A DNA stretch of 33,237 nucleotides from Candidatus Firestoneibacteriota bacterium (GCA_043822305.1 JBDRBU010000012.1:1-33237); one strand, 5' to 3'. Positions 2,132-16,272 are shown, counted from the first letter of the stretch. Numbers and translations are program-made. Notes: generated from the sequence alone by a model not told the origin.

Positions 2132-4120
2132 ATGAACAATGGAATAACTTTTAAATCAATTTTTATTGGAATAATTTGTATTTTTATAGGATGTGCTTTT
2201 ACGACTTTAGCTGATATGCGCTATAGCATGTCGTTAAGTTCGTACTTCTTCCTGCCCCTTGTTATCGTTTTTCTCTTAATTCTCATGACTGTTGTAAAAT
2301 GGGTGCTTTCTATATTTGGTATTAAATTAACCAGTAAAGAGTTGTTAGTCATTTATATAATGATGGCCATGGTCGTAGGGCTCCCTTCAACAGGTATAAT
2401 TACATATATATTGCCAACGGTAACTTCTCCTCTTTATTATAGCACTGTTGAGAATAGATGGGAAGAACTTATTATAAAGCATATACCTGAATGGTTAATG
2501 CCATCTGACCCTGATCCATCTACTACAATTAATGAATCTGCTCAATACTTTTATGAGGGGTTACCAAAAGGTGCCTCAATTCCTTGGGCATCATGGATCA
2601 AACCATTTTTAGCATTTTTTATCTTTAGTTTGGTTTTATATTTTATATATTTTTGTTTAGCAATTATTATTAGAAAACAATGGATAGAAAATGAAAGATT
2701 ATCTTTTCCAATAGTTCAATTACCATTAGAAATGGTAAAAGGTTCAGAATCTTCTTTCGTTTCATCGCTTTTCAAAAACAAATTATTTTGGATTGGTTGT
2801 ATAGCAGTTTTCTTGTTGCATTTTTACAATGTTCTAACATTTTTTATCCCTGACTTAGAAAGAATAGCCTTAAGAAATATATCTTTAAATTTTTTATTTA
2901 CAGAAAGTCCATGGATAGGCATGAAAGGTCTGGCCATTAGCATATACTTTTCAGTAATAGGATTTTCATTTTTACTTCCAGTAGATGTGTCTTTTAGTCT
3001 TTGGTTTTTTTATCTTTTAAATGCTAAGTTTCAATATGTTTTTGCAAATGTCCTTGGTTTTACTCCGACAACAGGAGGAGCTCTTAATCCTCAGTTTTTA
3101 CAGTTTGAACAGTTCGGAGCATATCTGGTTTTAGTTGTATTTAGTATCTGGTATGCCAGGAAGCATCTTAAAGAAATTGTAAAAAGTGCTTTTAAAAAAA
3201 GTGATAGTCGTAACGGTCATGATGAAAGATTACACTATAAGATAGCATTTTTTGGTTTAATCATAGGGATTATAGTTCTAATATTTTTGTTAAGTCTGGT
3301 AGGCATCTCTCCAATTTATGGATTTTTTACAGTTCTTATTTTTGTAATTATTATTATAGTCGTCTCCAGGATTGTGGCCGAAGGTGGGGTTTATTTTACC
3401 CAGCAGAATTTTGCTCCATATGGTATTATTAACTCAGCCGTAGGAACTTCTTCTATAAGTCCACAAACATTAACCTTAGGAGGAATGTTTAACTGGATAT
3501 ATGTGATAGATTTATTAGCTTTACCACTTCCATTTATAAATGATGGTTATAAAATTGCACATGAAACAGGTATTAATAGAAAGAAGTTAACTTTTGTCAT
3601 GGTAATGGCAGCAGTTATAGGACTTATAGTTAGTTTTTATTCTTTCTTGTATATAAGCTACCATTTTGGTGGAGTGAATTTAGAAAGATGGTATTTAAGG
3701 GATGCACCTACTGAGATATATTCTACTATTCAAAGTGATTTGACTATTCCTAAAGATACTAAGGATACTAAAGATACTGAGAGTTCTAATAGAGGTCAGT
3801 TTTTAATATTTGGAGGTCTTGGAGGAGTTGTATTAGTATTTATAATGTTTATGAGACAAAAGTTTTTGTGGTGGCCATTTCATCCTATAGGATATGTAAT
3901 GGGATTTAGTACGGACGGTGGACCAATGTGGAGATTATGGTTTTCGTTTTTTGTAGGATGGCTTATTAAGTCAACTATTGTCTCTTATCTGGGCGGCTCT
4001 GTTTATAAAAAGATGAAGCCGTTATTTTTTGGTTTTATTCTGGGAGAAGTTTTTATTGCCATTATTATAGTCATATTACAACTTATATATTCAAGATCTA
4101 TATATATGGTATTTCCGTAA
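2132..4120 (+). CDS. Polytopic membrane protein, OPT-like transporter superfamily (resembles DUF6785/DUF6784 proteins)
   Basis: 662 aa with roughly 15 or more hydrophobic segments; N-terminal ITFKSIFIG; motif RKQWIENERLSFPIVQLP; C-terminal RQKFLWWPFHPIGY. Confidence 0.7.
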   Translation: MNNGITFKSIFIGIICIFIGCAFTTLADMRYSMSLSSYFFLPLVIVFLLILMTVVKWVLSIFGIKLTSKELLVIYIMMAMVVGLPSTGIITYILPTVTSPLYYSTVENRWEELIIKHIPEWLMPSDPDPSTTINESAQYFYEGLPKGASIPWASWIKPFLAFFIFSLVLYFIYFCLAIIIRKQWIENERLSFPIVQLPLEMVKGSESSFVSSLFKNKLFWIGCIAVFLLHFYNVLTFFIPDLERIALRNISLNFLFTESPWIGMKGLAISIYFSVIGFSFLLPVDVSFSLWFFYLLNAKFQYVFANVLGFTPTTGGALNPQFLQFEQFGAYLVLVVFSIWYARKHLKEIVKSAFKKSDSRNGHDERLHYKIAFFGLIIGIIVLIFLLSLVGISPIYGFFTVLIFVIIIIVVSRIVAEGGVYFTQQNFAPYGIINSAVGTSSISPQTLTLGGMFNWIYVIDLLALPLPFINDGYKIAHETGINRKKLTFVMVMAAVIGLIVSFYSFLYISYHFGGVNLERWYLRDAPTEIYSTIQSDLTIPKDTKDTKDTESSNRGQFLIFGGLGGVVLVFIMFMRQKFLWWPFHPIGYVMGFSTDGGPMWRLWFSFFVGWLIKSTIVSYLGGSVYKKMKPLFFGFILGEVFIAIIIVILQLIYSRSIYMVFP

Positions 4121-4125
4121 CAGAC

Positions 4126-4164
4126 GAGATGGCCACGGTCGCCTCAGGCGACCTCGCCATGACA
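4126..4164. repeat. Palindromic REP-like element, family A (…CTCGC(A/C)ATGACA end)
   Basis: GAGATGGCCACGGTCGCCTCAGGCGACCTCGCCATGACA: inner stem GGTCGCC/GGCGACC, outer ATGGC/GCCAT. Related copies at 30322-30349, 16776-16786 and possibly 10560-10582. Confidence 0.7.
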
Positions 4165-4192
4165 TAAACAGAAATAAAGGAAAGTAAATTAT

Positions 4193-7100
4193 ATGAGAAA
4201 ATTTATAATTTTTATTACCTGGTTATTAGTTCTTAATCCTATTGTCGTCCAGGCAATAGATTACAAAGAAGTTTACGACTCAATAGATTCTGCAAGTCTT
4301 AAAAATAATATTTTAAAATTGTCTTCATTTAAGACTCGCGTAACGGGATACTCTGGTTGCGATAAAGCAGGAGATTGGATAGTTGATGAATTTAAAAAAA
4401 TAGGTTTGAAAAATATAAAAACTTTTGAGTATGATGTCGTTGTTCCAATAGATGAAGGGGCTAAATTAAAGGTAATAAAAACCAATAAAACATACGAAAT
4501 GTTTTCATTATGGCCAAATTTAATTAGAACCTCTACTTTGCCTTCTGATGGAATTACTGGAAAATTAGTATATGTTGAAGATGGTGAAATTTCCAAATTT
4601 AATGATAAAGATATAAAGGATAATATTGTTCTAATAGATTTTAACTGTAGGAATAACTGGCTAAACGCACCTTTACTTGGTGCGAGGGCAGTTGTTTTCA
4701 TTGAGTCGGAAACAACTACAAGAAGAGAAGCAGAAAGTAAGTATCTGGGTGTTCCAGCTAATATTCCAAGATTTTGGATAAGTAAAAAAGATGCGTCTGA
4801 ATTATTGGAAGAAAAAGAATCTGAAGTTCATCTGACAGCAAACATGACCTGGAAAAAACAAAAAGCAAAAAATATTATTGGTTATATAGAAGGAAATAAT
4901 GCTGAATTAAAAAAAGAGTGTCTTATTATTAATTCTTATTATGATAGCATGTCTGTTGTTCCAGCACTTTCACCTGGAGCAGAAAGTGCTTGTGGCATAT
5001 CTGCTTTACTTGAATTAGCCAAAGTTTATAAAAAATATCAACCAGGCAGAACAATTGCATTTTTAGCCACATCGGGTCATTTTACTTACTTATATGGAAT
5101 GCGAAGTTTTATTAAAAATGATGCTCAAAACGAGTTTAAACCTTTTAAAAACTGCTTTTTAATTTCTTTAGACCTTTCTTCACAAACCGATGAATTAGGA
5201 ATAACTGTCCGAGGTCATTACTATGGTTTATCAGAGTTATATGCAAGACGTTTTAAACCCTTCTCAAAAGTTATTTATGAAAGCAGTGAATATGTATGTA
5301 AATATTTAAATTTACAAGGAGATAAACTCATAGATTTACTGGCAGATAAGAAAGGCAGGATTTGGGAAACTTATATTCCAGACAAAATTGCTTTAGAACA
5401 TGAACCATTTACTTTATCTAAAAGATTTGGATTTAGTCTAGTAACACTAAATGATTTAAGAGCAAATATTGACTCTCCTTTAGATAATATAGATTTAGTA
5501 AATATATCTAATTTAAGTAGCCAGGTTAATTTTTTATCTGCTTTATTTTTAAATTTGTCTTATAAGGAACTTCCTTACAGTGATATTAAAATGATAGAAA
5601 AAGATGGTCTTGGTGATTGTTATGGCCAGGTTGTAGAATTTGATCCTACCGTAAGTTTTTTACCCAATAAGCCAGTCACTAATGCGCTTGTCGTCTTTCA
5701 TCGTGAATCATTACCTTTAAATATAGGTGGTGTCCGAAGTGACCCGGTGGTACAAACAGATAAAGATGGATATTTTAGAATATTTAATGTTCCACAATTT
5801 ATAGCAAATATACTTGATAGTAATTATTATTTTTATACTTTAAAACCATTTTATATAAATGAGAAAGATGGTGAAATTACTTACAGTAAAGATTTAGGTC
5901 AAAATGGAGAACTTAAATTTAAAACAACTAGTATCTGGCAGGCAAAGGAAAAACTTAAAACCTGTGTAGTACTTAAAAGTAGAAGCATGACACTTTTTGA
6001 TATTGTTGACCAAAGAACATATTTTCAGCCGGCAACTATACAAGTATTTGATGCAAGAACAGACAGTGTCCCTGTTGCTTTTTCGTATTTTGGACATATT
6101 CCAGTAACCTGGTTCCCTGGTAGTTCATATTCTGTGGCTACTGTTGTTGTTTTTGGTGAGGAGAATGCCCGATTTAAATTTAATTTTAGTAGTGGACTAA
6201 TTGGGACAAAGTCAATTCTTATAAACGCAGATAAAAAAAATCCTACAGGTAAAGGAATATCACTTAAAAAACAGCCATTATTTTATCATACTCCATTTTA
6301 TATTGCTTCTGATATGTGGATCTTAGATGATAGTCGCATTAACACCATGAAAAAGTTTGGTATAGTTAATGACAGATTAAACGAACTTCATCAATTAGCC
6401 AAAGATTCTTTAGAAAAGTCAAAAAAAGCATTAAATGATAAAGAATATGATAAGTTTTTGAAATACAGTCGAGAAGCCTGGGGTTATGAAGCCAGAGGTT
6501 ATCCAGATGTTCAAGGGACCGCCAACGATGTCATAAAAGGAATATTGTTTTATCTGGTTTTGGTTATTCCTTTTGTTTTCTTTCTTGAAAGATTAGTATT
6601 TAATTTTGCAGATATAAGAAAACAGGTATCAGCCATCTTTTTAATTTTTATATTTGTATTTTTAATCTTACATTTGGTTCATCCCGCCTTTAATATATCA
6701 AATAGTCCTTATATAATATTTTTAGCATTTATAATATTCATGCTTGGAGTTATTGTCATCATACTTATATACAGGAAATTTTCGGTCCAGATGAGAGAGG
6801 TTAAATCTGCAATCACTGGACTTCATTTGGCCGATATAAGCCGGGTTACTACTATTTCGACAGCAGTTAAATTAGGGATTTCTAATATCAGGAAAAGACC
6901 GGCCCGTGCTTTTCTTACTTCATTTACTTTAATTCTTCTAACATTTGCTATCCTGTCATTCACCTCTGTTAAATCATATCTAAAGTTTAACAAGATTTCT
7001 CTTTCTCATCATGCAACATATGAAGGAATATTAATAAGGACAACAAACTGGGATGCTATTGAAGAAACACTTTATGAACATTTAAACAACCATTTTAAGG

Positions 7101-8599
7101 GGATAGTAAATGTGTCTCCCCGCAGCTGGTTAATTTCTGATGATCCTACAAAAACAAAAAAATATATAAAAGTTGTAAAAGATAAATTAGAATTTAATGC
7201 ATCTGCCTTGCTGGGTCTTTCAAGTTATGATGGAGAATTTATAATATCAAAGGGTGGTTTAAAAGAAGGTAGATGGTTTAAAGAAGGAGAAGTTGATAGT
7301 TGTATTATTCCTGAGAGCATTGCCAATGCTCTTAAAATTTCAAAAGAAGATATAGGCCGGAAAGAAGTTACTGTTTGGAGTAAGAATTTAAAGATAATAG
7401 GGGTTTTAGATGATAAGAAATTTTTAGAAATTAAAGATTTGGATAATGAGCCATTTACACCTGTAAATTATTTGTTATCACGAGGTATTCAACAACAAAA
7501 AGAGGAGGCCATAGGTACAGAAGCTTCATTACCAGTGTTACATCATATACTTCCTGATAGTGTTGTGGTTGTTCCTTATAGTTTAGCCATGTCATTAGGA
7601 GGAAATTTAAGAGGAGTTAGAATTCCATTTGATAAAAAACCGGAGATATTTGCTGACGAGATAAAACAACTGATGCCAAGACTTGCTCTGACTATATTTG
7701 TTGGATATCAAGGGAATAGTTATTTGTATAGTTCGATGGGTAGAACCTTATATTCTGGATTAGCCAATATATTTATACCGGTTTTAATAGGTGCTTTAAT
7801 TGTGTTAAATACGATGTTAGGTTCGGTATATGAAAGAACAAAAGAAATAGGAACCTATAGTGCCGTAGGTCTTGCGCCCACTCATATTTCTGCTTTATTT
7901 CTTGCTGAATCAGCCGTATATGCAACTATAGGTGCCATAACAGGTTATTTGCTGGGACAAACTGCCTCCAAGTTAATTACACAGTTTCAATTACTGCCAG
8001 GATTAATCTTAAATTATTCTTCTATGTCTGCCGTTTATACCTGTGGAATTGTTATTATTACAGTTATTGTTTCAACAATGTATCCTGCTATTAAAGCCGC
8101 TCAAATGGCTGTTCCAGATGTTTCTCGTCGATGGCAATTTCCAAAACCGCAAGGAAATAATCTGATATTTGAACTACCATTTACAGTTAATATAAGAGAT
8201 GTATTGCCCATAAATGGATTTTTATTAAATTATTTTAGAGCACATACAGAATCAACATTAGGAGGCTTTTATACAGAGAAAGTCACTCTTTCTAATATCT
8301 CTAATGAGTATGGAGAAGGTTACAGAGAAGAACTTACTGTTTGGATAGTTCCTTTTGAATTAGGTATCAGTCAAAATGTTACGATAGATACATTACCAAC
8401 AGAAGATAATAATATTCATAGTGTTAAATTTAATATTGAAAGAAAGTCTGGAGAGTTTTCTACCTGGAGCAGAGTAAATAGAGGATTTTTAGATGGAATT
8501 AGAAAACAATTTTTAATATGGAGAACAGTTAGCGATAAAGGTAAAGAAACCTATAAAAAAGAAGGAGAGAGGGAGTTATCAAATGAAGGCAAATCATAA
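4193..8599 (+). CDS. Fusion: signal peptide, M28-peptidase-fold/PA ectodomain (metal ligands degenerate), extra TM bundle, MacB/FtsX-type ABC permease, cytoplasmic C-terminal domain
   Basis: M28-like RVTGYSGCDKAGDWI, KNIIGYIEG, GISALLELAK; PA-like GKLVYVEDG...DIKDNIVL; FtsX signatures AVKLGISNIRKRPARAFLT and NTMLGSVYERTKEIGTYSAVG, YPAIKAA. Confidence 0.8.
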   Translation: MRKFIIFITWLLVLNPIVVQAIDYKEVYDSIDSASLKNNILKLSSFKTRVTGYSGCDKAGDWIVDEFKKIGLKNIKTFEYDVVVPIDEGAKLKVIKTNKTYEMFSLWPNLIRTSTLPSDGITGKLVYVEDGEISKFNDKDIKDNIVLIDFNCRNNWLNAPLLGARAVVFIESETTTRREAESKYLGVPANIPRFWISKKDASELLEEKESEVHLTANMTWKKQKAKNIIGYIEGNNAELKKECLIINSYYDSMSVVPALSPGAESACGISALLELAKVYKKYQPGRTIAFLATSGHFTYLYGMRSFIKNDAQNEFKPFKNCFLISLDLSSQTDELGITVRGHYYGLSELYARRFKPFSKVIYESSEYVCKYLNLQGDKLIDLLADKKGRIWETYIPDKIALEHEPFTLSKRFGFSLVTLNDLRANIDSPLDNIDLVNISNLSSQVNFLSALFLNLSYKELPYSDIKMIEKDGLGDCYGQVVEFDPTVSFLPNKPVTNALVVFHRESLPLNIGGVRSDPVVQTDKDGYFRIFNVPQFIANILDSNYYFYTLKPFYINEKDGEITYSKDLGQNGELKFKTTSIWQAKEKLKTCVVLKSRSMTLFDIVDQRTYFQPATIQVFDARTDSVPVAFSYFGHIPVTWFPGSSYSVATVVVFGEENARFKFNFSSGLIGTKSILINADKKNPTGKGISLKKQPLFYHTPFYIASDMWILDDSRINTMKKFGIVNDRLNELHQLAKDSLEKSKKALNDKEYDKFLKYSREAWGYEARGYPDVQGTANDVIKGILFYLVLVIPFVFFLERLVFNFADIRKQVSAIFLIFIFVFLILHLVHPAFNISNSPYIIFLAFIIFMLGVIVIILIYRKFSVQMREVKSAITGLHLADISRVTTISTAVKLGISNIRKRPARAFLTSFTLILLTFAILSFTSVKSYLKFNKISLSHHATYEGILIRTTNWDAIEETLYEHLNNHFKGIVNVSPRSWLISDDPTKTKKYIKVVKDKLEFNASALLGLSSYDGEFIISKGGLKEGRWFKEGEVDSCIIPESIANALKISKEDIGRKEVTVWSKNLKIIGVLDDKKFLEIKDLDNEPFTPVNYLLSRGIQQQKEEAIGTEASLPVLHHILPDSVVVVPYSLAMSLGGNLRGVRIPFDKKPEIFADEIKQLMPRLALTIFVGYQGNSYLYSSMGRTLYSGLANIFIPVLIGALIVLNTMLGSVYERTKEIGTYSAVGLAPTHISALFLAESAVYATIGAITGYLLGQTASKLITQFQLLPGLILNYSSMSAVYTCGIVIITVIVSTMYPAIKAAQMAVPDVSRRWQFPKPQGNNLIFELPFTVNIRDVLPINGFLLNYFRAHTESTLGGFYTEKVTLSNISNEYGEGYREELTVWIVPFELGISQNVTIDTLPTEDNNIHSVKFNIERKSGEFSTWSRVNRGFLDGIRKQFLIWRTVSDKGKETYKKEGERELSNEGKS

Positions 8600-10550
8600 A
8601 GAAGATGAAGAGTTATTAGAGTATAGAAATTTATTAACAACACCAACTACATTTGAGGAAGGATTTACACTAAAAACAATTCTGGGTGTTTTATTTGTAA
8701 GTTTAATCATGGCTCCCGGCTCAATGTATTTAAGTCTGGTCACAGGTGGAACATTAGGACCAGCCGCAGAATGGGTTACAATCATAATATTTGCAGAAAT
8801 AGCTAAAAGGTCTTATACGACTTTAAAAAAACAGGAAATATATTTATTGTATTATGTGGCCCTGGCCTTAATTGTTGGTGGGTCTGGAACATTTGGGGGT
8901 TTGATCTGGAATCAATATTTAGTTCAGTCTCCGGCTGCTATTGGCTTTGGTGTCGCCGATAAGATTCCTCACTGGGTTGCTCCATCGGCTACTTCAGAAG
9001 CAATATTAAAAAGGACTTTTTTCCATAAAGATTGGATACCGGCCATTGCACTTCTTATGGGTGGAATGATTCTTTCAAGAATTGGTTGGTTTACTTTTGG
9101 ATATACTTTATTTAGGGTAACCTCGGATGTTGAAAAATTACCTTTTCCATTGGCTCCATTAGCCGTTCAGGGTGCAACCGCACTTGCTGAAACAACTGAA
9201 AAGAAAGAAACCTGGCGATGGCAGGTTTTTAGTATTGGGGCTATGATCGGAATAATATTTGGTGTCGTCTATGTTGGGATTCCTACTATAACCAATGCAT
9301 TATTTAACCAAACATTGTCTCTTTTACCCATACCATTTTTAGATTTAACGAAGGTTACTGAAACCTTCTTGCCGGCAACTCCCACAGGTATTACATTGAA
9401 CATTGGAGTAATTTTAACAGGTTTTGTTTTGCCATTTTGGTTAGTTGTTGGAGCATTTATTGGGACTATGACTTATACTTTAGCAAATCCTATACTATAT
9501 AAGGTGGGACTCCTTGAGAATTGGAGACCCGGAATGGATATTATTGCCACGGTATTTTCTAATGGTATAGATTTCTGGTTAAGTTTTGATATCGGTTTAA
9601 CATTTGCTGTGGCTGTTATTGGAATTTATCAGGTAGTTAAAACTTTAAAAAAAGCCAGAAAAGGAATTCCTACCCAGTCTAAAGAACCATCTGAGTTACC
9701 TCAGGGAAGAGGAGATTTTCCTATACCTATAGCCATAACATTATTTATAGTGGTCGTTATCTGTTATATAGTTCTTTGTAAATTTTTAGTTCCCGGATTT
9801 CCAATATACTTCTTTTTATTCTTTGGATTTATATTTACCCCGCTTAATTCATATATTAATGCCCGTATGGTCGGACTCTCTGGACAGTGGGCTGGAATAC
9901 CCATGGTCAGAGAAGCAACATTTATATTAAGTGGCTATAAGGGAGCAGATATATGGTTTGCACCTGTCCCTATAGATAATTATGGTGGATATGCTCAAAA
10001 GTTTAGAGAAATCGAATTAACAGGAACAAAAATCACCAGTATAGTTAAAGCAGAACTCTTTATGGTCCCGATAATATTTATTACAAGTATAATGTTCTGG
10101 CAGTTTATATGGCAGTTAGGTCCTATTCCATCTCCAGCGTATCCATATGCTCAAAAGATGTGGCAATTAGATGCTCTAAATCAATGTCTCTGGATAAGTT
10201 CAACAGTAACTGGACACACATGGTTACTTGATGCCATAAAACCTCTTCTTATGTTCGTAGGTTTTTCGCTGGGAATAGTTATATTTATTGTATTTAATTT
10301 ATTAGGGTTTCCTGTGCTTCTATTTTATGGAATTATAAGAGGCTTTGGATCGTTGCCTCCATTTTTAATCCCGGAGATTCTGGGAGCATTATTAGGCAGA
10401 CTTTATTTAGCCAAGAGATTTGGAAAAGAGACCTGGAGACAGTATGCTCCAGTGATAGCCGTAGGATATGCGTGTGGCATAGGTCTTATTGGTATGGTCT
10501 GTGTGTCTATTGCTTTAATTTCTAAAGCAATAAGTCCATTACCATTTTAA
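8583..10550 (+). CDS. OPT (oligopeptide transporter)-like polytopic membrane protein
   Basis: 655 aa, many TM helices; GFTLKTILG start of TM1; DVEKLPFPLAPLAVQGATALA resembles the OPT-family LxFP motif; overlaps the upstream gene by 17 nt. Confidence 0.7.
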   Translation: MKANHKEDEELLEYRNLLTTPTTFEEGFTLKTILGVLFVSLIMAPGSMYLSLVTGGTLGPAAEWVTIIIFAEIAKRSYTTLKKQEIYLLYYVALALIVGGSGTFGGLIWNQYLVQSPAAIGFGVADKIPHWVAPSATSEAILKRTFFHKDWIPAIALLMGGMILSRIGWFTFGYTLFRVTSDVEKLPFPLAPLAVQGATALAETTEKKETWRWQVFSIGAMIGIIFGVVYVGIPTITNALFNQTLSLLPIPFLDLTKVTETFLPATPTGITLNIGVILTGFVLPFWLVVGAFIGTMTYTLANPILYKVGLLENWRPGMDIIATVFSNGIDFWLSFDIGLTFAVAVIGIYQVVKTLKKARKGIPTQSKEPSELPQGRGDFPIPIAITLFIVVVICYIVLCKFLVPGFPIYFFLFFGFIFTPLNSYINARMVGLSGQWAGIPMVREATFILSGYKGADIWFAPVPIDNYGGYAQKFREIELTGTKITSIVKAELFMVPIIFITSIMFWQFIWQLGPIPSPAYPYAQKMWQLDALNQCLWISSTVTGHTWLLDAIKPLLMFVGFSLGIVIFIVFNLLGFPVLLFYGIIRGFGSLPPFLIPEILGALLGRLYLAKRFGKETWRQYAPVIAVGYACGIGLIGMVCVSIALISKAISPLPF

Positions 10551-10612
10551 AAAGGTCTAATTGCTTCGCAATTAACCATGACCAATATTATTTTTTACAC
10601 TAAGGAAAGTCA

Positions 10613-11458
10613 ATGAAACAATTTGCCTGGAGGGAAATTAGTTTAAATATCCCTGATGATTGGGAGCCACTGGCGATAGGTGGTCATGACAAGAATGGAT
10701 ATGTAAGTCTGGGTGCTGGTTTAAAAATTGGTTTAGAATTGAAATGGAACTATTCGAAATTTAATGTTTCTGTAGGTAAGATTTTGAATAAGTTTCTGCA
10801 TTCTATAGAAAAGAAGGCAAAACAAAAGAAAGAAATTTTTAAATTTTCCAAAGACATAGATTTAAAGAGTAAATTATTATCTTTTGAATGGAAAACAAAC
10901 AATGTAGTTGCCACAGGGATTATCTGGCATTGTGATCTATGTAAGAGAGTTGTTTTATGCCAGTTATTAAACCAGGATTCGAATTTAACAAAAGAAATAT
11001 TAAGTAGTTTGAAATGTCATGATAATGAAAAAAGATTTTGGTCTATTTATAATCTGTCGTTTAGTTTGCCTATTTTATGGAAATTAGAAAGTTATATTTT
11101 TAAAAGTGGATATTTGAAATTTGTATTTGTTAACGGTCTTAAGGTTATAAAAATAGAAAGATGGGGGTTAGCCAACAATCTATTAGCGGATATTTCTTTG
11201 GAAAAATGGTTAAGTATCTTCTATAAGGAAAGATTTAAAGAAAATGTTTCTGTAAGCAAGATCAATCTACAAAATCATGATGGTTTGAAGGTGATTTTTA
11301 CCAATAAGAGGAAATTGTTTAACCTTAAAAAGGTCATTATGTTATGCTTTGTTTGGCTTTGTCCCGAATCTAATAGAATCTTTGTAGTGAGTGAAAGCTC
11401 AAATATCAATAATGATGAAGAGTTATTAAATATTATAAAATCAATAAAATGTCATTAA
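10613..11458 (+). CDS. Uncharacterised soluble protein made of two homologous halves, each ending in KCH
   Basis: 281-aa ORF with SD (TAAGGA); halves start FAWREISLNIPDDW / FWSIYNLSFSLPILW and end ILSSLKCH / IIKSIKCH; no signal peptide. Confidence 0.8.
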   Translation: MKQFAWREISLNIPDDWEPLAIGGHDKNGYVSLGAGLKIGLELKWNYSKFNVSVGKILNKFLHSIEKKAKQKKEIFKFSKDIDLKSKLLSFEWKTNNVVATGIIWHCDLCKRVVLCQLLNQDSNLTKEILSSLKCHDNEKRFWSIYNLSFSLPILWKLESYIFKSGYLKFVFVNGLKVIKIERWGLANNLLADISLEKWLSIFYKERFKENVSVSKINLQNHDGLKVIFTNKRKLFNLKKVIMLCFVWLCPESNRIFVVSESSNINNDEELLNIIKSIKCH

Positions 11459-11808
11459 AAAATAAAGAAGGAATATTAAACAGTAAGCCATTAAGGAATC
11501 CAACACTTAAAGTTAGTGAAAAAAACGGGGAAGTTTTTATAACTTTAGAACGAAAACAAGGTGGGTGGGTTAATATTTTATCAAAGATATTTTTCATGCC
11601 CAAGGAAAAGACAGTTGTGCTTGATAAAATTGGTTCTGAGATTTGGAATCTATGCGATGGAAGAAGAAGAGTTTGCGATATAGTAAATTATATTGTTGAA
11701 AATCATAAACTTTCCAATATCGAAGCAGAAACTTCTTTATTGGAATACTTAAAGCAACTCGTTAAAAGAGGCATAATCGGATTAGAAATTTCCAAGAAAT
11801 ATTTATAA
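11449..11808 (+). CDS. PqqD-family (RiPP recognition element-like) protein
   Basis: LDKIGSEIWNLCDGRRRVCDIVNYIVENH...LLEYLKQLVKRGII is the PqqD winged-helix pattern; overlaps the upstream gene by 10 nt. Confidence 0.85.
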   Translation: MSLKNKEGILNSKPLRNPTLKVSEKNGEVFITLERKQGGWVNILSKIFFMPKEKTVVLDKIGSEIWNLCDGRRRVCDIVNYIVENHKLSNIEAETSLLEYLKQLVKRGIIGLEISKKYL

Positions 11809-11822
11809 ATATGAGGTGAATT

Positions 11823-12428
11823 ATGGAACAAGAAAAGATTGGTAAACAAATCACTTTGCCGTTATCAGATGCAGTTAAGATTAGTTTTAACAGTTTAAAG
11901 ATTAGATTTGGCCGGTCCATTATAACTATGGGCGGTATATTCCTTGGGATTGCTTTTTTAATCAGTGTCCTGGCTGGTTCTGCTATTTCGTCTTCATTAG
12001 CCATTGAGTCTGATCCGGATATGAAAGTAAAGCAAACATGGTTAGTTATACTATCATTATTAGTTTGCGTCTTAGGTATTACAAACTCTATGCTCATGTC
12101 TGTGAGTGAAAGGTACAAAGAGATAGGCACGATGAAATGTTTGGGAGCATTAGATAAATTTGTTGTTGAATTATTTATTCTGGAGGCAGCATTTCAAGGT
12201 ATAGTCGGTTCAATAGGTGGCTCCTTATTTGGCGTACTTAGTATAAGTATTCTTTATTTAATTAAGAATGGATGGAAAGTTATAATTTGTTATCCATTAA
12301 TCAAAATAATTATTTATATTCTGATTTCAATAATATTAGGCATAGTCCTTTCTGTCATAGGTTGTATTTATCCTGCTTATAAAGCAGCAAAAATGGTGCC
12401 AGCAGATGCTATGCGAACGGAGGTATAA
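11823..12428 (+). CDS. Minimal FtsX/MacB-type ABC permease (4 TM, almost no extracytoplasmic domain)
   Basis: AVKISFNSLKIRFGRSIIT; NSMLMSVSERYKEIGTMKCLGA; YPAYKAAKMVPADAMR; SD GAGGTG. Confidence 0.9.
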   Translation: MEQEKIGKQITLPLSDAVKISFNSLKIRFGRSIITMGGIFLGIAFLISVLAGSAISSSLAIESDPDMKVKQTWLVILSLLVCVLGITNSMLMSVSERYKEIGTMKCLGALDKFVVELFILEAAFQGIVGSIGGSLFGVLSISILYLIKNGWKVIICYPLIKIIIYILISIILGIVLSVIGCIYPAYKAAKMVPADAMRTEV

Positions 12429-12433
12429 AAAAA

Positions 12434-13171
12434 ATGGTTTATGAAAGTATTGTTAGAGTAAAAGATGTAAAAAAAGTTTTTATTATGGGGAAGATAGAGG
12501 TTCAAGCTTTAACCGGTATTACTCTTCAGATACAAAAAGGAGAGTATGTCTCAATTATGGGACCATCTGGAAGTGGAAAATCTACTTTATTTAATATGAT
12601 CGGCGGTTTAGATAAACCTACAGATGGGAAAGTTTATATTGATGAGGTAGATGTAGCCCAACTTGATGCGTATGAGTTAGCCTGGCTTAGATGTAGAAAA
12701 ATTGGTTATATATTTCAAACATTCAATTTAATACCTGTCATGACCGCGGCAGAAAATATTATGCTTCCAATGGTTTTTGCAGGTTTGTCGCACGATGAAG
12801 CACTGGCAAAAAGTTCTGAACTTCTAACTATTGTTGGGTTAGAAGGTAGAATGGGTCATAAACCATCAGAACTTTCAGGAGGACAACAGCAAAGAGTAGC
12901 CATTGCCAGAGCATTAGCCAATGATCCGGCTATTGTTTTAGCTGATGAACCAACTGGTAATCTGGACTTAAAAACAGGAAAAGAAATCATTATGCTTTTG
13001 AAGAGATTGAATAAAGAAAAAGGAGTTACGGTTATAAGTGCTACGCATGATTTAAAAATGCTTGATATAAGTGATAGAATCTTTTGGATTAGGGATGGTC
13101 AGGTTGAAAAAGTAGAACAACGCTCAGAAGTAAAATTAGAAGTAGGAAAAGTAGAAGGAGAGGGGGTGTAA
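12434..13171 (+). CDS. ABC transporter ATP-binding protein, LolD/MacB/FtsE type
   Basis: Walker A GPSGSGKS, GYIFQTFNLI, signature LSGGQQQRVAIARAL, Walker B VLADEPTGNLD, H-loop ATHD. Confidence 0.95.
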   Translation: MVYESIVRVKDVKKVFIMGKIEVQALTGITLQIQKGEYVSIMGPSGSGKSTLFNMIGGLDKPTDGKVYIDEVDVAQLDAYELAWLRCRKIGYIFQTFNLIPVMTAAENIMLPMVFAGLSHDEALAKSSELLTIVGLEGRMGHKPSELSGGQQQRVAIARALANDPAIVLADEPTGNLDLKTGKEIIMLLKRLNKEKGVTVISATHDLKMLDISDRIFWIRDGQVEKVEQRSEVKLEVGKVEGEGV

Positions 13172-13172
13172 A

Positions 13173-13601
13173 ATGGTTGAAGGATTTAATGGAATAGAAC
13201 ATAGACGTTATATTAGGTTAAATAAAGAAGTTCCTTTAAAATTTAAAGTATTATCAGATGATAAAGCAAATATACTAACAAACTGGATTGAAGCAAAAAC
13301 ACAAAATATAAGTCTGGGGGGAATGTGTATAAATGTGATTGATTTAAGTGACGAAATTAAAAGCATGCTGTTAAGTGGGAAGCATTTTGTAGAAATAGAA
13401 ATGGATTTAACAACAGATGGCAAAGTTAAAATAAATGCACAATCTACTTATATAAAGGTGATAGGCCGGGTTAAATGGGACCATAATTCGGAAATATATG
13501 AAATGGGAATTCAATTTTTAGACACTCCTCTTGAGGTTATGGATAAGATAAAAGAATTTATAACACAAAAATATTTGGATAAATATAAAGGGGAAAAGTA
13601 A
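13173..13601 (+). CDS. PilZ-domain c-di-GMP receptor
   Basis: RxxxR (RRYIR) and D/NxSxxG (NISLGG) motifs, C-terminal GIQF; starts 1 nt after the ATPase stop. Confidence 0.88.
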   Translation: MVEGFNGIEHRRYIRLNKEVPLKFKVLSDDKANILTNWIEAKTQNISLGGMCINVIDLSDEIKSMLLSGKHFVEIEMDLTTDGKVKINAQSTYIKVIGRVKWDHNSEIYEMGIQFLDTPLEVMDKIKEFITQKYLDKYKGEK

Positions 13602-13631: not shown

Positions 13632-14768
13632 TTAATAAGAGACTACCTTGTTCCTGCCGCTTTCTTTACCACGATAAAGAGATTTATCAGCATATTCTAT
13701 CAAATCTTTATATTCATCAGGACCATCTGTTGGAAAGTTTGATACGCCTATAGTTATTGTAACTTTTTGTGTAGGTTTTCCATCTTCATTTAAAAAAACA
13801 GTTTCTTCTGTTTTTTTTCTTACTCTTTCTGCAAATCTAAAAGCATTCTCTTTAGGAGTTTCTGTTAAGATTATAGTGAATTCTTCACCACCATATCTAC
13901 AAACAAAATCTGTTGGTCGGCTATCATCCTTTAAAATTTTGGCTATATTTTTTAAAACAATATTACCCGTTTGATGTCCATATGTGTCGTTAAAATCTTT
14001 AAAATGGTCAATATCAGCCATAAATAAAGAAAGTTCATGGTTATATCTTGTTGCCCTTAAAAATTCCTCTTGTAATTTTCCCTGAAAATATCTGAAGTTA
14101 TATAAACCGGTTAATTCATCTGTTACAGAGAGTTCTCTTGTTTTCTCAAGTAAATAAGCATTGTCAATGATTATAGATGCCTCTGATGAGAATATGGTTA
14201 ATAACCTTAATTCCTTACCGGTGAAATTATAATTTAATTTTGAAAATGCACCTATAAGACCTGATATTTTATGATGCGATTTCAAAGGAGCAATGTTCAT
14301 GGAAATTATCCCTTGACTATATAATAGTTGATAATTTGTATATTCAGTATGAGATGGAGAGAGGTTGTTGATTAATATTGAATGACCTTTGGAAATTTTC
14401 TCATAAATGTAATTATCCAACCTTAAATGTTCAATACCTTTGCATATATAAAAAGGAGTAGAATCTTTCTTTTCCGAAAAAAGTTCTATATAACTAATTT
14501 CTGTTTTTAATATTTCCTTAACAGTATCCACTATGCGATTAAGGATATTATTCAAATCAGGTTCTTTATTAAATTCTGAGGCAACATCATTTATAGTTTC
14601 AAGAATTTTAGCATCTTGTGTGAGGTCCTCACTTTGAAAAAGCAGTCTTTGATACTTGTTATGTAGATCTCTTAATTCTCTTTTTTTTAGGTGAACCCTA
14701 AAATGCATAATGATACTGCATAAGGTTGTAATAAATAATGCCATGTAAAGGATATCTTCTGTATTCAT
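13632..14768 (-). CDS. Membrane-anchored GAF-GGDEF diguanylate cyclase
   Basis: N-terminal TM, GAF, TDELTGLYN, DIDHFKDFNDTYGH, intact GGEEF and I-site RPTD. ATG at 14768 is preferred over the GTG at 14795, which falls inside the promoter. Confidence 0.92.
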   Translation of the reverse strand: MNTEDILYMALFITTLCSIIMHFRVHLKKRELRDLHNKYQRLLFQSEDLTQDAKILETINDVASEFNKEPDLNNILNRIVDTVKEILKTEISYIELFSEKKDSTPFYICKGIEHLRLDNYIYEKISKGHSILINNLSPSHTEYTNYQLLYSQGIISMNIAPLKSHHKISGLIGAFSKLNYNFTGKELRLLTIFSSEASIIIDNAYLLEKTRELSVTDELTGLYNFRYFQGKLQEEFLRATRYNHELSLFMADIDHFKDFNDTYGHQTGNIVLKNIAKILKDDSRPTDFVCRYGGEEFTIILTETPKENAFRFAERVRKKTEETVFLNEDGKPTQKVTITIGVSNFPTDGPDEYKDLIEYADKSLYRGKESGRNKVVSY

Positions 14769-14775
14769 GATTTTA

Positions 14776-14804
14776 AGTATACTACATAATAACACCTAAG
14801 TCAA
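14776..14804 (-). promoter_or_regulatory. Sigma70-type promoter for the diguanylate cyclase, probably giving a leaderless mRNA
   Basis: Minus strand TTGACT-17 bp-TATACT, followed by only 7 nt (TAAAATC) before ATG. Confidence 0.7.
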
Positions 14805-14837: not shown

Positions 14838-14867
14838 TTGACAATAATATGGTTTATGTTTTATAAT
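14838..14867 (+). promoter_or_regulatory. Consensus sigma70 promoter for the lolA operon
   Basis: TTGACA (14838-14843)-18 bp-TATAAT (14862-14867), 13 nt upstream of the ATG. Confidence 0.8.
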
Positions 14868-14880
14868 GATGTAGCTATAT

Positions 14881-15552
14881 ATGACAAAACAGACAAAATC
14901 TTTAAAATGGCTAATATATTATTTATTTTTTATTTCTTCATCATATGCACTTAATGTAGATGAAGTTATTAATAATTTAACAGAATCGATGAAGAATAAA
15001 ATGAATTCCTTCGAGGCAGATGTTGAGCAGGTTATTTGTATTTCGGATATGGAGGACCCCCAAAAGATGAAAGGTAATATAACTTTTAAAAAGCCGGGTA
15101 TGATGTGCCTTGATTATACTGAGCCTAATAAACAATTTGTGATTTCAGACGGTAAAACTATATGGATTTATTTTCCGGCCATGAGACAGGTTATTGTGCA
15201 GGATATATCTGAAGTTAAAAATAAAGAATATTTTTTATTCCAGTTTGATTTATTTATTGATAGTATAAAAAGTAGATTTGAAACAAAACTCTTAAAAGAA
15301 GAGAAGATGGAAAATAAAGAAACTGTCTTAGTTGAATTCATCCCCAGAGATGAGCATTCGGAATTTTCAAAGATAAGTGGGTTATTTGACAAAGAAAAAT
15401 GGTTACCAATACATCTTTCAGTGTATTATAATGAATTAAGTAATATAAGTATAACTTTTAAAAATTTTAAATTAAATTCTGAAGTTAAAACTGATATATT
15501 TGATTTTAAAATTCCTGAAGGAGTAGAAGTTATATCTTCATTATTAAAGTAA
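14881..15552 (+). CDS. lolA: Outer-membrane lipoprotein carrier protein, LolA family
   Basis: Signal peptide ending SSYA; GNITFKKPGMMCLDYTEPNKQFVISDGKTIWIY; C-terminal FDFKIPEGVEVI. Confidence 0.8.
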   Translation: MTKQTKSLKWLIYYLFFISSSYALNVDEVINNLTESMKNKMNSFEADVEQVICISDMEDPQKMKGNITFKKPGMMCLDYTEPNKQFVISDGKTIWIYFPAMRQVIVQDISEVKNKEYFLFQFDLFIDSIKSRFETKLLKEEKMENKETVLVEFIPRDEHSEFSKISGLFDKEKWLPIHLSVYYNELSNISITFKNFKLNSEVKTDIFDFKIPEGVEVISSLLK

Positions 15553-15564
15553 GTAAGGAGAGTC

Positions 15565-16272
15565 ATGGAAGAAATGGGAATAGGAAATAGATTAAAAGAA
15601 GAAAGAGAAATAAAGGGATTAACATATGAAAAAATTTCAGAAGATTTAAAAATTCAACCTAAGTTTCTTGAAGCATTAGAGAAGGAAGATTTTGAGCAAT
15701 TTCCGGGTGAAACTTATTTAAAAGCCTTTTTAAGAACATATTCTGACTATCTGGGATTAAAACCTGTTGAGATCTTAAGTCTTTATAAAAGTTCTAAAAC
15801 AAACAAGGTTAATTTGGATTATATGATATCTCACAGTGTCATAAAGTTGCAAAAGAAAAAAATAAAAATTACAGAAAAAACAAAGATAGTAGCTTTATTG
15901 ATATTGACAGTTATATTTTTAATATGTTTGATTTTAGGGATAAAAAGTTGTGCTCATCTATCAAAGAAAACACATATTAATACATCAAATATATCGGGTA
16001 ATTTTTCGCCTTTAGTTCTAATAGTTGAAACCACAGAAGATGTTTATTTCGAGATGGCCAAGGATAATGAGCCAACTCAAATTTTATCACTTAAAGGTGG
16101 AGAGAGGAAAGAATGGGAAGCTAATGATGAGTTTAATTTAGTTATAGGTAATAAATCTGGTGTAAAAATTACTTATAATGGTCAGCCATTAGACCTTTCC
16201 AAGTATAAATCTAAAAATAAGGTTATTAAAAATTTAATTTTGCGGAGAGAAGGAGTTAAATATGTCCAATGA
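15565..16272 (+). CDS. rodZ: RodZ-like protein (HTH, TM, DUF4115-type periplasmic domain)
   Basis: IGNRLKEEREIKGLT...LEALEKEDF...YLKAFLRTYSDYLGL; single TM; LVIGNKSGVKITYNG. Confidence 0.85.
   Translation: MEEMGIGNRLKEEREIKGLTYEKISEDLKIQPKFLEALEKEDFEQFPGETYLKAFLRTYSDYLGLKPVEILSLYKSSKTNKVNLDYMISHSVIKLQKKKIKITEKTKIVALLILTVIFLICLILGIKSCAHLSKKTHINTSNISGNFSPLVLIVETTEDVYFEMAKDNEPTQILSLKGGERKEWEANDEFNLVIGNKSGVKITYNGQPLDLSKYKSKNKVIKNLILRREGVKYVQ

Follow-up and report, generated by a model that had tools for sequence, protein, structure and literature searches.

What kind of membrane machine is encoded by eight co-oriented bacterial genes that bring together two permeases of the oligopeptide transporter (OPT) fold, an M28-peptidase-like head fused to an FtsX permease, a second and minimal FtsX permease, an ATP-binding cassette (ABC) ATPase and small proteins of the PqqD and PilZ types? 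These genes, named here g1 to g8 (Table 1), lie at positions 2132-13601 on the + strand of a 33,237-nt stretch of DNA, called hereafter the window, which is contig C12 of the 125-contig, 2.15-Mb genome bin of a Candidatus Firestoneibacteriota bacterium (GCA_043822305.1 JBDRBU010000012.1:1-33237). It is very probable that the eight genes make up one machine, since (i) their synteny is kept in several gene orders; (ii) some of them are naturally fused; (iii) they co-occur across genomes.

Conservation of the neighbourhood is described on two sets of loci. The 79 genome loci are anchored on g3, come mostly from metagenome-assembled genomes (MAGs) labelled Latescibacterota or Gemmatimonadota, and were compared by BLASTP with the window proteins. 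A g2 match lies beside g3 in 74 of them; g4 and g5 are each matched in 65, g1 adjoins g2 in at least 34, g6 is matched in none, and the g7-like matches (7 loci) are distant ABC genes only, several kb off. The 80 metagenome loci are anchored on an Armatimonadota-type g3 alignment and were scored with hidden Markov models built from our own alignments. There, g2 stands beside g3 in 53 of the 63 evaluable loci, 17 further loci being too short. Among these 53, the order g6-g7-g2-g3 is found 13 times and the order g2-g3-g4-g5-g6-g7 five times; g1 is present in 9 and the g4-g5 pair in 8.

Two kinds of fusion join the same families. A single 2119-aa open reading frame (ORF; L124:4122-10481) reads M28, periplasmic core domain, FtsX, DUF6785, DUF6784, and in three genomes of the window's phylum (L024, L207, L209) g6 carries a PilZ domain as an N-terminal fusion. 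Presence and absence coincide as well: g3 is found in 9 of 41 relatives of the window genome, g6-type FtsX in the same 9, and neither in the other 32; DUF6785 is above cut-off in the same 9 genomes. The original prediction, made from the sequence alone, had proposed a single complex and had named co-occurrence of the homologues across genomes as one way to check it; adjacency, fusions and the identical g3/g6 pattern support the single complex. The distribution is patchy, since only one (G002) of 11 order-mates carries the set. In the phylum of G042, a Latescibacterota-labelled genome, g3 is found at E<=1e-30 in 67 of 81 sampled genomes, often in several copies. The closest named homologues of g3 and g2 (71% and 60% identity, respectively) belong to a Candidatus Firestonebacteria MAG.

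In two loci, other genes stand inside the module. At L121:5415-14973 (G042), a g2 paralogue is separated from its g3 by a block of about 10 kb with a lower third-position GC. Among the genes of this block are N6-methylase/Eco57I-type and SNF2-helicase ones, and it resembles a defence island inserted into the module. At L122, a PIN-domain gene is located between g2 and g1.

In the window itself, the ORF listing reproduces exactly the positions first reported. The successive gaps from g1 to g8 are 72, -17, 62, -10, 14, 5 and 1 nt, i.e., none exceeds 72 nt and two pairs overlap, as had been claimed. The GC content of the cluster (0.30-0.37) is comparable to that of the remaining window. No terminator-like site is found on the + strand between the genes g1 to g8; the only two such sites on that strand are weak and intragenic, and the sites are fewer than in shuffled sequence. 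The same genes, followed by the same GGDEF gene, are found in identical order in G002 with 31-86% identity. g1 to g8 are thus real genes and not chance ORFs, since both the order and the GGDEF gene are kept there. Pfam names six of the eight genes (13 window proteins scanned), all NCBIfam scores of g1-g8 stay under cut-off, and for g3 and g4 Pfam gives nothing even at E<=10.

Table 1. Coordinates of the cluster genes and of the convergent neighbour, counted from the first nucleotide of the window.
Gene	Product	Length (aa)	Position	Strand	Basis
g1	OPT-superfamily permease (DUF6785 + DUF6784), polytopic	662	2132..4120	+	Pfam
g2	Motor/receptor subunit	1468	4193..8599	+	Pfam, AlphaFold2 (AF2) model, hydrophobic segments
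g3	Second OPT-fold permease, family without Pfam model	655	8583..10550	+	AF2 model + Foldseek
g4	Soluble protein of an unnamed family, probable Cys/His metal site	281	10613..11458	+	Alignments
g5	PqqD/RRE-type small protein	119	11449..11808	+	Pfam PqqD
g6	Minimal FtsX-type permease, four transmembrane segments	201	11823..12428	+	Pfam FtsX
g7	MacB/LolD-type ABC ATPase, motifs intact	245	12434..13171	+	Pfam ABC_tran
g8	Stand-alone PilZ domain protein	142	13173..13601	+	Pfam PilZ
GGDEF gene	GAF-GGDEF diguanylate cyclase, convergent to the cluster		13632..14795	-	Pfam GGDEF 1.9e-46, GAF 4.2e-07

The largest protein, g2, is characterized by the following order: a signal or anchor segment, an ectodomain of PA+M28 fold, a beta-sandwich region, a three-helix stalk, three transmembrane (TM) segments, TM1 of the FtsX domain, a putative periplasmic core domain of the MacB type, TM2-4 of the FtsX domain and, at the end, about 160 aa of cytoplasmic tail. 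Pfam recognizes FtsX (5e-15, 56.1 bits for a cut-off of 25.5) and, partially, Peptidase_M28 (6e-09, profile positions 1-86 of 193). The MacB_PCD match (1.8e-4, 22.3 bits) is under its cut-off of 27 in g2 itself, and three g2 homologues reach 30.4, 33.8 and 34.1 bits. The middle beta region, the TM linker and the tail give nothing meaningful in Pfam at E<=1, and no usable match is obtained in the Atlas with the tail (aa 1312-1468). The homologues of g2 are annotated either as 'M28 family peptidase' or as 'FtsX-like permease family protein'. Some carry added domains, LysM (P0342) or F5/8-type-C (among P0342 and P0351).

The AF2 model of the g2 ectodomain (aa 22-790, 23 sequences) has a predicted local distance difference test (pLDDT) of 89.7 and a predicted TM-score (pTM) of 0.90. 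The PA + M28 head takes up model residues 1-444; a beta-rich region comes next, and then three long helices, which lead into the first membrane segment. The best Foldseek match of the head is the M28 aminopeptidase 2ek8 (E 5.8e-24). The VIA comparison, which covered residues 1-444 of the ectodomain, gives Z 29.4 with 1rtq_A (rmsd 2.6, 265 residues aligned) and Z 19.8 with the glycosylphosphatidylinositol (GPI)-transamidase chain 7w72_A. The head also matches the transferrin receptor (Foldseek, about E 1e-21) and GCPII.

The residues at the active site differ from those of the enzymes. We take the two-zinc and catalytic positions of M28 to be His, Asp, Glu-Glu, Asp and His, as in the Aeromonas enzyme. 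At these sites g2 has Tyr instead of His, Glu-Ser in the Asp-Asp region and His-Phe instead of Glu-Glu; the last His falls outside the mapping. The Glu-Glu site is His-His in 57 of the 64 members of the g2 family, and the substitutes Y249/Y250, D251, E264 and H296 are conserved over the 64. In g2, the His at the Glu-Glu site aligns with a His of 2anp_A; other solved chains of that enzyme scored lower. For the stretch with the degenerate motifs, the top sequence match in the PDB is Nicalin, a non-catalytic M28 homologue. The M28 fold with its canonical His, Asp and Glu-Glu positions replaced agrees with the pseudo-peptidase-FtsX fusion announced initially. Since the replacement residues are themselves conserved in the family, the pocket, as read from the alignment, is probably functional yet not a canonical di-zinc centre, and the head is more likely a ligand-binding one than a canonical aminopeptidase.

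The two permeases on either side of g2 were both described as OPT-like, and both prove to be so, by different routes. g1 passes the Pfam OPT model (8.3e-11, 41.7 bits for a cut-off of 25.8) besides DUF6785 (2.6e-138) and DUF6784 (5.2e-25); it is a single-copy gene in G000, the genome of the cluster. For g3, the profile has 0 matches among PDB sequences, and the fold is given by the AF2 model (pLDDT 82.9, pTM 0.83, 52 homologues). Its top Foldseek match is barley Yellow Stripe 1 (YS1; 7wst_A, E 2.3e-10, probability 1.00, TM-scores 0.62/0.67; 7wsr_A, E 6e-10), the next one being merely at E 0.044, and the superposition on YS1 extends over about 680 columns with 13-14% identity. This confident structural match assigns g3 to the OPT fold. 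Compared by BLASTP, g1 and g3 show no detectable likeness (best E 0.18). Pfam OPT is matched by some g3 homologues (P0017, 33.9 bits), and some sources label them 'peptide transporter'. The g3 family is large, i.e., at least 3545 homologues at E<=1e-3 (8000 candidates scored), with source labels Armatimonadota, Elusimicrobiota, Latescibacterota, Gemmatimonadota and Handelsmanbacteria. One g3 paralogue has a PDZ insert and another homologue a Reg_prop domain (variants P0017 and L123:8567-11800).

DUF6785 proteins are also found alone, with up to 11 matches of such paralogues per genome. In 4 of 14 loci these lone genes adjoin sulfatases or glycoside hydrolases (43 of the 78 neighbouring ORFs were scanned, mainly shorter ones being left out of the count). 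At L012, L018, L029 and L030, the neighbours of stand-alone DUF6785/DUF6784 genes are sulfatase, GH129, GH106, GH16 and GH130 genes. The DUF6785/DUF6784 family may therefore include uptake systems for the products of glycan breakdown.

The motor pair corresponds to what had been read from the sequence, i.e., a minimal FtsX and an ATPase. g6 matches Pfam FtsX (2.1e-21, 76.6 bits for a cut-off of 25.5); of its four hydrophobic segments, TM1 and TM2 are joined by a loop of some 17 residues only, and a periplasmic core domain is lacking. g7 matches ABC_tran (8.9e-35), and Walker A, Q-loop, LSGGQ, Walker B and H-loop are all readable in it; its top NCBIfam models, all under cut-off, are LolD, the N-terminal part of MacB and DarD. 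The place of this pair in the gene set is only partly as first described: it adjoins g2-g3 in two gene orders, and it is often located elsewhere as a single shared copy. In the complete, Latescibacterota-labelled chromosomes checked (5 of 5), the g6 orthologue (45-49% identity) lies directly beside the g7 orthologue (70-72%) at one distant locus each. G042 contains seven full-length g2 paralogues, all seven with an OPT-fold gene fused, adjacent or at most 11 kb off. Seven g2 paralogues for one g6-g7 locus per chromosome suggest that a single motor pair serves several receptor/permease modules. G000 holds further FtsX-type genes (a 305-aa frame on contig C19, others being frames of about 400 aa), thus the cluster is not its sole FtsX-type system.

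g4 belongs to no Pfam or NCBIfam family; its C107, C110 and C250 are near invariant, with a pattern CxxC ... C ... C-terminal CH (alignments A3 and A7). A profile search finds 1779 representative clusters at E<=1e-3 (992 at E<=1e-10), compared with 5 proteins only in a word-indexed search. The Atlas clusters nearest g4 have no Pfam family in common and bear the names Thermodesulfobacteriota, Bathyarchaeota and Poribacteria. g5 matches Pfam PqqD (9.2e-10, 39.2 bits for a cut-off of 23.4), all the NCBIfam PqqD equivalogs being under cut-off, and its family has a conserved N-terminal SRPxRN motif. g5 had been called an orphan PqqD protein; this does not hold, as g4 adjoins it in 65 of the 79 genome loci. 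PqqD genes without g4 adjoin additional g6 copies (L214, L215) or the ATPase (L211). No precursor peptide, radical-SAM, lasso or cyclodehydratase gene is found near g5 (13 window proteins; intergenic gaps of at most 72 nt). The prediction of a g4+g5 complex from alignments A3 and A5 gives ipSAE values of 0.01 and 0.08, without controls.

Two candidate variants of this pair were rejected: (i) a 385-aa ORF of L215 is not a g4::g5 fusion (hhalign probability 0.5%); (ii) a 255-aa gene after g3 is not a divergent g4 (0.4%) and is a pilin-like DUF1559 protein. Proteins of the latter type are about 255 aa long and combine a prepilin N-methylation motif with DUF1559 ('SBP_bac_10'); their genes stand directly 3' of g3 in 15 metagenome loci (e.g., L153:7325-8092), and these loci are of the g6-g7-g2-g3 type and probably related to one another. 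It must be noted also that an antisense flagellin gene directly follows the PqqD gene in 28 of the 65 g5-bearing loci (e.g., L070:13772-14935(-)), and that beyond it come a membrane protein of 200 aa, weakly matching PAP2, and then RecD2. This block, found in Latescibacterota/Gemmatimonadota-labelled loci, is probably lineage synteny and not part of the system.

g8 matches Pfam PilZ (3.5e-08, 34.1 bits for a cut-off of 22.5). The motifs for cyclic di-GMP (c-di-GMP) binding are, as we take them, RxxxR and (D/N)xSxxG; g8 carries RRYIR and NISLGG, and equivalents are present in L011 and in the L024 fusion. From these motifs, g8 is likely the c-di-GMP receptor of the motor. The convergent GGDEF gene occupies the same place in G002 (54% identity) and is absent from the examined loci of other phyla; its product is a probable local source of c-di-GMP, specific to the lineage. 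PilZ had been listed among the parts of the machine. It is found, like the GGDEF gene, solely in the window's own phylum, and both are thus accessories and not core parts.

Upstream of g1, two membrane-anchored paralogs had been reported (ORFs 2-574 and 584-2107). They share 39 residues at 100% identity and are otherwise unlike, so that the paralogy holds for this stretch only. The identity stems from an exact 129-nt repeat (the contig start, 1-129, equals 1465-1593), which may be an edge effect of the assembler; ORF 2-574 may be the result of a misjoin or else a genuine, partial paralogue. ORF 584-2107 has a DUF4398 domain and hydrophobic segments at both termini, and its stop codon is 24 nt upstream of g1. 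Its LysM match is weak (18.6 bits, under the cut-off of 20.9), and its top NCBIfam model, LipL71, is far under cut-off. Downstream, the only perfect -35/-10 consensus found in the scan precedes the next + strand gene (TTGACA-18-TATAAT, 14838-14867). This gene is LolA-like and is followed by a RodZ-like gene (HTH_25 + RodZ_C), the two spanning 14881-16272. These envelope genes are not kept beside the module in other phyla.

How would such a machine work? Starting from what is observed (gene content, folds, conservation, fusions and co-occurrence), the following model adds a stoichiometry, a coupling, a cargo and a direction by inference. The roles given in the original prediction (capture by the ectodomain, a conduit of OPT subunits, cargo handled by PqqD and the 'KCH' protein) are of the same kind. 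From what is established for type VII (MacB/FtsX-fold) ABC systems, g2 and g6 would form an asymmetric FtsX heterodimer, the one half with a periplasmic core domain and the other without, powered by a dimer of g7. This motor would be physically coupled to the OPT-fold permeases g1 and g3. Binding and hydrolysis of ATP would move the periplasmic parts (mechanotransmission), a peptide-like ligand would be captured or extracted outside the membrane, passed to the OPT-fold subunits and carried across the cytoplasmic membrane, probably inward. Capture outside followed by passage via g1/g3 is the most economical route, since the OPT partners alone have a solute-carrying fold. c-di-GMP would gate the motor through g8 in this lineage, the adjacent GGDEF enzyme making the signal; this control is proposed because the PilZ motifs are intact, PilZ::g6 fusions exist and the GGDEF gene is kept in G002. 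In some versions of the machine, g4 and g5 would act in the cytoplasm as an adaptor or a regulator.

Taken as a whole, i.e., one membrane machine with its motor coupled to g1/g3, a peptide-like ligand probably moving inward and c-di-GMP gating in the lineage, this reading is advanced tentatively, at slightly less than even probability. Within the model of one machine, uptake is preferred over export by a small measure, since the characterized members of the OPT/Yellow Stripe-like (YSL) family are importers and the variants with binding domains fit. The hints from the neighbourhood and from the inserts are weak: sulfatase/glycoside hydrolase neighbours, the PDZ, Reg_prop, LysM and F5/8-type-C inserts and the DUF1559 gene after g3. 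Several observations weigh against the proposed reading. The glycan-degrading neighbours of lone DUF6785 genes indicate sugars and not peptides. With D251, E264 and H296 invariant in an M28-like pocket, some catalytic activity of the g2 head is conceivable from the alignment. g1 is matched by BLASTP in only 34 of the 79 genome loci. With PilZ control and a PqqD-type peptide-binding protein inside the cell, secretion would be at least as compatible as uptake. In the available parts of four papers, type VII ABC systems do not feed importers; their work of expulsion, extraction or activation takes place on the membrane's outer side (PMC12646458, PMC7668044, PMC8333309, PMC5985334).

This last point leads directly to a c-di-GMP-controlled machine for export or installation, in which a cytoplasmic peptide or small protein recognized by g5 and g4, or an envelope building block, would leave through the OPT subunits and be released or placed in the envelope by the ATP-driven ectodomain. 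Such a machine is unlikely, and it is the alternative to be taken most seriously. PqqD/RiPP recognition element (RRE) domains bind ribosomal precursor peptides in the cytoplasm, and g5 passes the PqqD cut-off; PilZ receptors are typically activators of secretion or motility, and three genomes carry PilZ and g6 as one protein; the g6-g7 locus of G042 adjoins glycosyltransferase and RmlD genes. However, neither the 13 window proteins nor the recurring neighbours include a precursor-like small gene, a modifying enzyme, a membrane-fusion protein or an outer-membrane duct; most versions of the module lack g4-g5 (only 8 of the 53 g2-bearing metagenome loci have the pair); and we know of no exporter in the OPT family. 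The motor could also switch the peptidase-like head, or a bound hydrolase, and thereby remodel peptidoglycan or surface proteins in the manner of FtsEX, the OPT permeases recycling the peptides. FtsEX, according to the consulted portions of two papers, activates amidases by driving EnvC, a peptidase homologue that is catalytically dead (PMC7668044, PMC12505981), and here a degenerate peptidase domain is fused to FtsX. A LysM domain in the g2 homologue P0342, the sub-threshold LysM match in the gene just upstream of g1 and peptidase genes near some modules (S41, M42) or near the separate g6-g7 locus of G042 (S8) point the same way. This regulator is nevertheless improbable, as up to seven paralogous modules per genome are unlike division or cell-wall housekeeping, the separate 305-aa FtsX-like frame exists in G000, no hydrolase is consistently beside the module and LysM-containing neighbours are not kept in other phyla.

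The remaining explanation gives up the single machine; OPT-type transporters independent of the ABC system would merely share with it an inherited or co-transferred neighbourhood. Ten of the 63 evaluable metagenome loci contain g3 without g2, despite a flank of at least 1.5 kb on each side, and the neighbours of such solo g3 genes are miscellaneous, with no common theme (38 proteins, 8 loci). Many DUF6785 genes are alone. g6-g7 is unlinked in the five Latescibacterota-labelled chromosomes, where its pairing with g2 is a matter of copy number and co-occurrence only, and many of the 79 loci come from related MAGs, i.e., from non-independent samples. Against this stand the g2::DUF6785 fusion in one reading frame, an adjacency kept over at least three gene orders in loci labelled as several phyla, the identical pattern of g3 and g6 (9 of 41 genomes) and the overlap of stop and start codons in g2/g3 and g4/g5. 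A mere shared neighbourhood is thus very improbable, and one machine is retained, with uptake as its tentative direction.

In its boldest form, the model of one machine would define a new class: a type VII ABC mechanotransducer that shares one complex, and in some cases one polypeptide, with OPT permeases, a common g6-g7 motor serving interchangeable modules, and a transferrin-receptor-like head feeding polymers (peptides, protein termini) through an OPT conduit under the control of a second messenger. All of this together is rather doubtful. If it were true, such a pairing, conserved and in some cases fused, would couple ATP to a secondary-transporter fold in a novel manner. In the current view, OPT transporters act by themselves, driven by the proton gradient, and type VII ABC systems carry no cargo through the cytoplasmic membrane. 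Poorly studied phyla often carry the system, and its function probably matters for the feeding or the envelope building of these environmental bacteria. Roles would moreover be given to three families that have none, i.e., DUF6785/DUF6784, the g3 family and the g4 family.

The original prediction knew of no characterized pathway with this gene set, and the literature searches turned up none in the portions of the sources that were available. No paper was found on DUF6785/DUF6784, none on FtsX together with M28 and OPT and none on PqqD with FtsX, subscription journals being outside the coverage. By title and abstract, none is relevant for PilZ, FtsX, c-di-GMP and ABC transporter combined. Among the matches listed, in the excerpts seen, no Firestonebacteria paper deals with this system and the term 'oligopeptide transporter' is absent from those on type VII ABC systems.

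Comparison with individual families places the parts more precisely. With OPT/YSL transporters (PF03169; YS1, 7wst), the likeness is that g1 passes Pfam OPT and the g3 model superposes on YS1; the differences are that g3 has no Pfam OPT match and that g1 falls in the separate DUF6785/DUF6784 families. Neither g1 nor g3 is known to work with an ABC motor. Transferrin receptor, Nicalin and GPAA1 share with the g2 head the PA + M28 fold, the lost or altered metal ligands and the position on a membrane protein complex. Unlike g2, they are eukaryotic and have unrelated partners, and the g2 head is fused to an ABC permease; the likeness is one of fold and degeneracy only. g5 resembles PqqD/RREs (RiPP, ribosomally synthesized and post-translationally modified peptide) by its Pfam score and differs by its conserved partner, either a protein of the unnamed g4 family or the pair of FtsX and ATPase. 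In BceAB-type systems, one FtsX-type domain is without an extracellular domain, the other has one, and the ATPases are of the MacB type; this is the same FtsX asymmetry as in g6 + g2. BceB is, however, a single polypeptide of 10 helices without M28-like head or OPT partners and works with a two-component system, and no two-component system is found among the window proteins.

The closest relatives are type VII ABC systems, i.e., MacAB-TolC, LolCDE-LolA, FtsEX-EnvC and YbbAP-TesA. The common properties are: (i) the FtsX four-helix domain, the putative MacB-type periplasmic core domain of g2 and the LolD/MacB-type ATPase; (ii) a large extracytoplasmic part that is expected to move with ATP turnover; (iii) in the case of FtsEX-EnvC, a moved part that is a degenerate peptidase homologue. 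None of the named systems is the same as the present one. No MacA/HlyD or outer-membrane duct family is found among the 13 window proteins or the recurrent neighbours, as MacAB-TolC would have. The LolCDE equivalogs are not reached (g6, lolCE 52.8 bits vs. 362; g7, LolD 233.4 vs. 307.75), and so are those of FtsEX (g6, FtsX models 26-34 bits vs. 225-255; g7, FtsE 207.7 vs. 264.85). More generally, the present system differs in that (i) its FtsX subunits are very unequal (1468 vs. 201 aa); (ii) the peptidase-like head is fused to the permease and no NCBIfam equivalog cut-off is reached; (iii) OPT-fold proteins are obligatory partners, which is described for no type VII system in the parts of the literature found; (iv) the module has no conserved partner of the MacA/TolC, LolA-dependent or EnvC type. 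The locus is best placed among type VII ABC systems, as a variant with partners of the OPT fold of which no earlier description was found.

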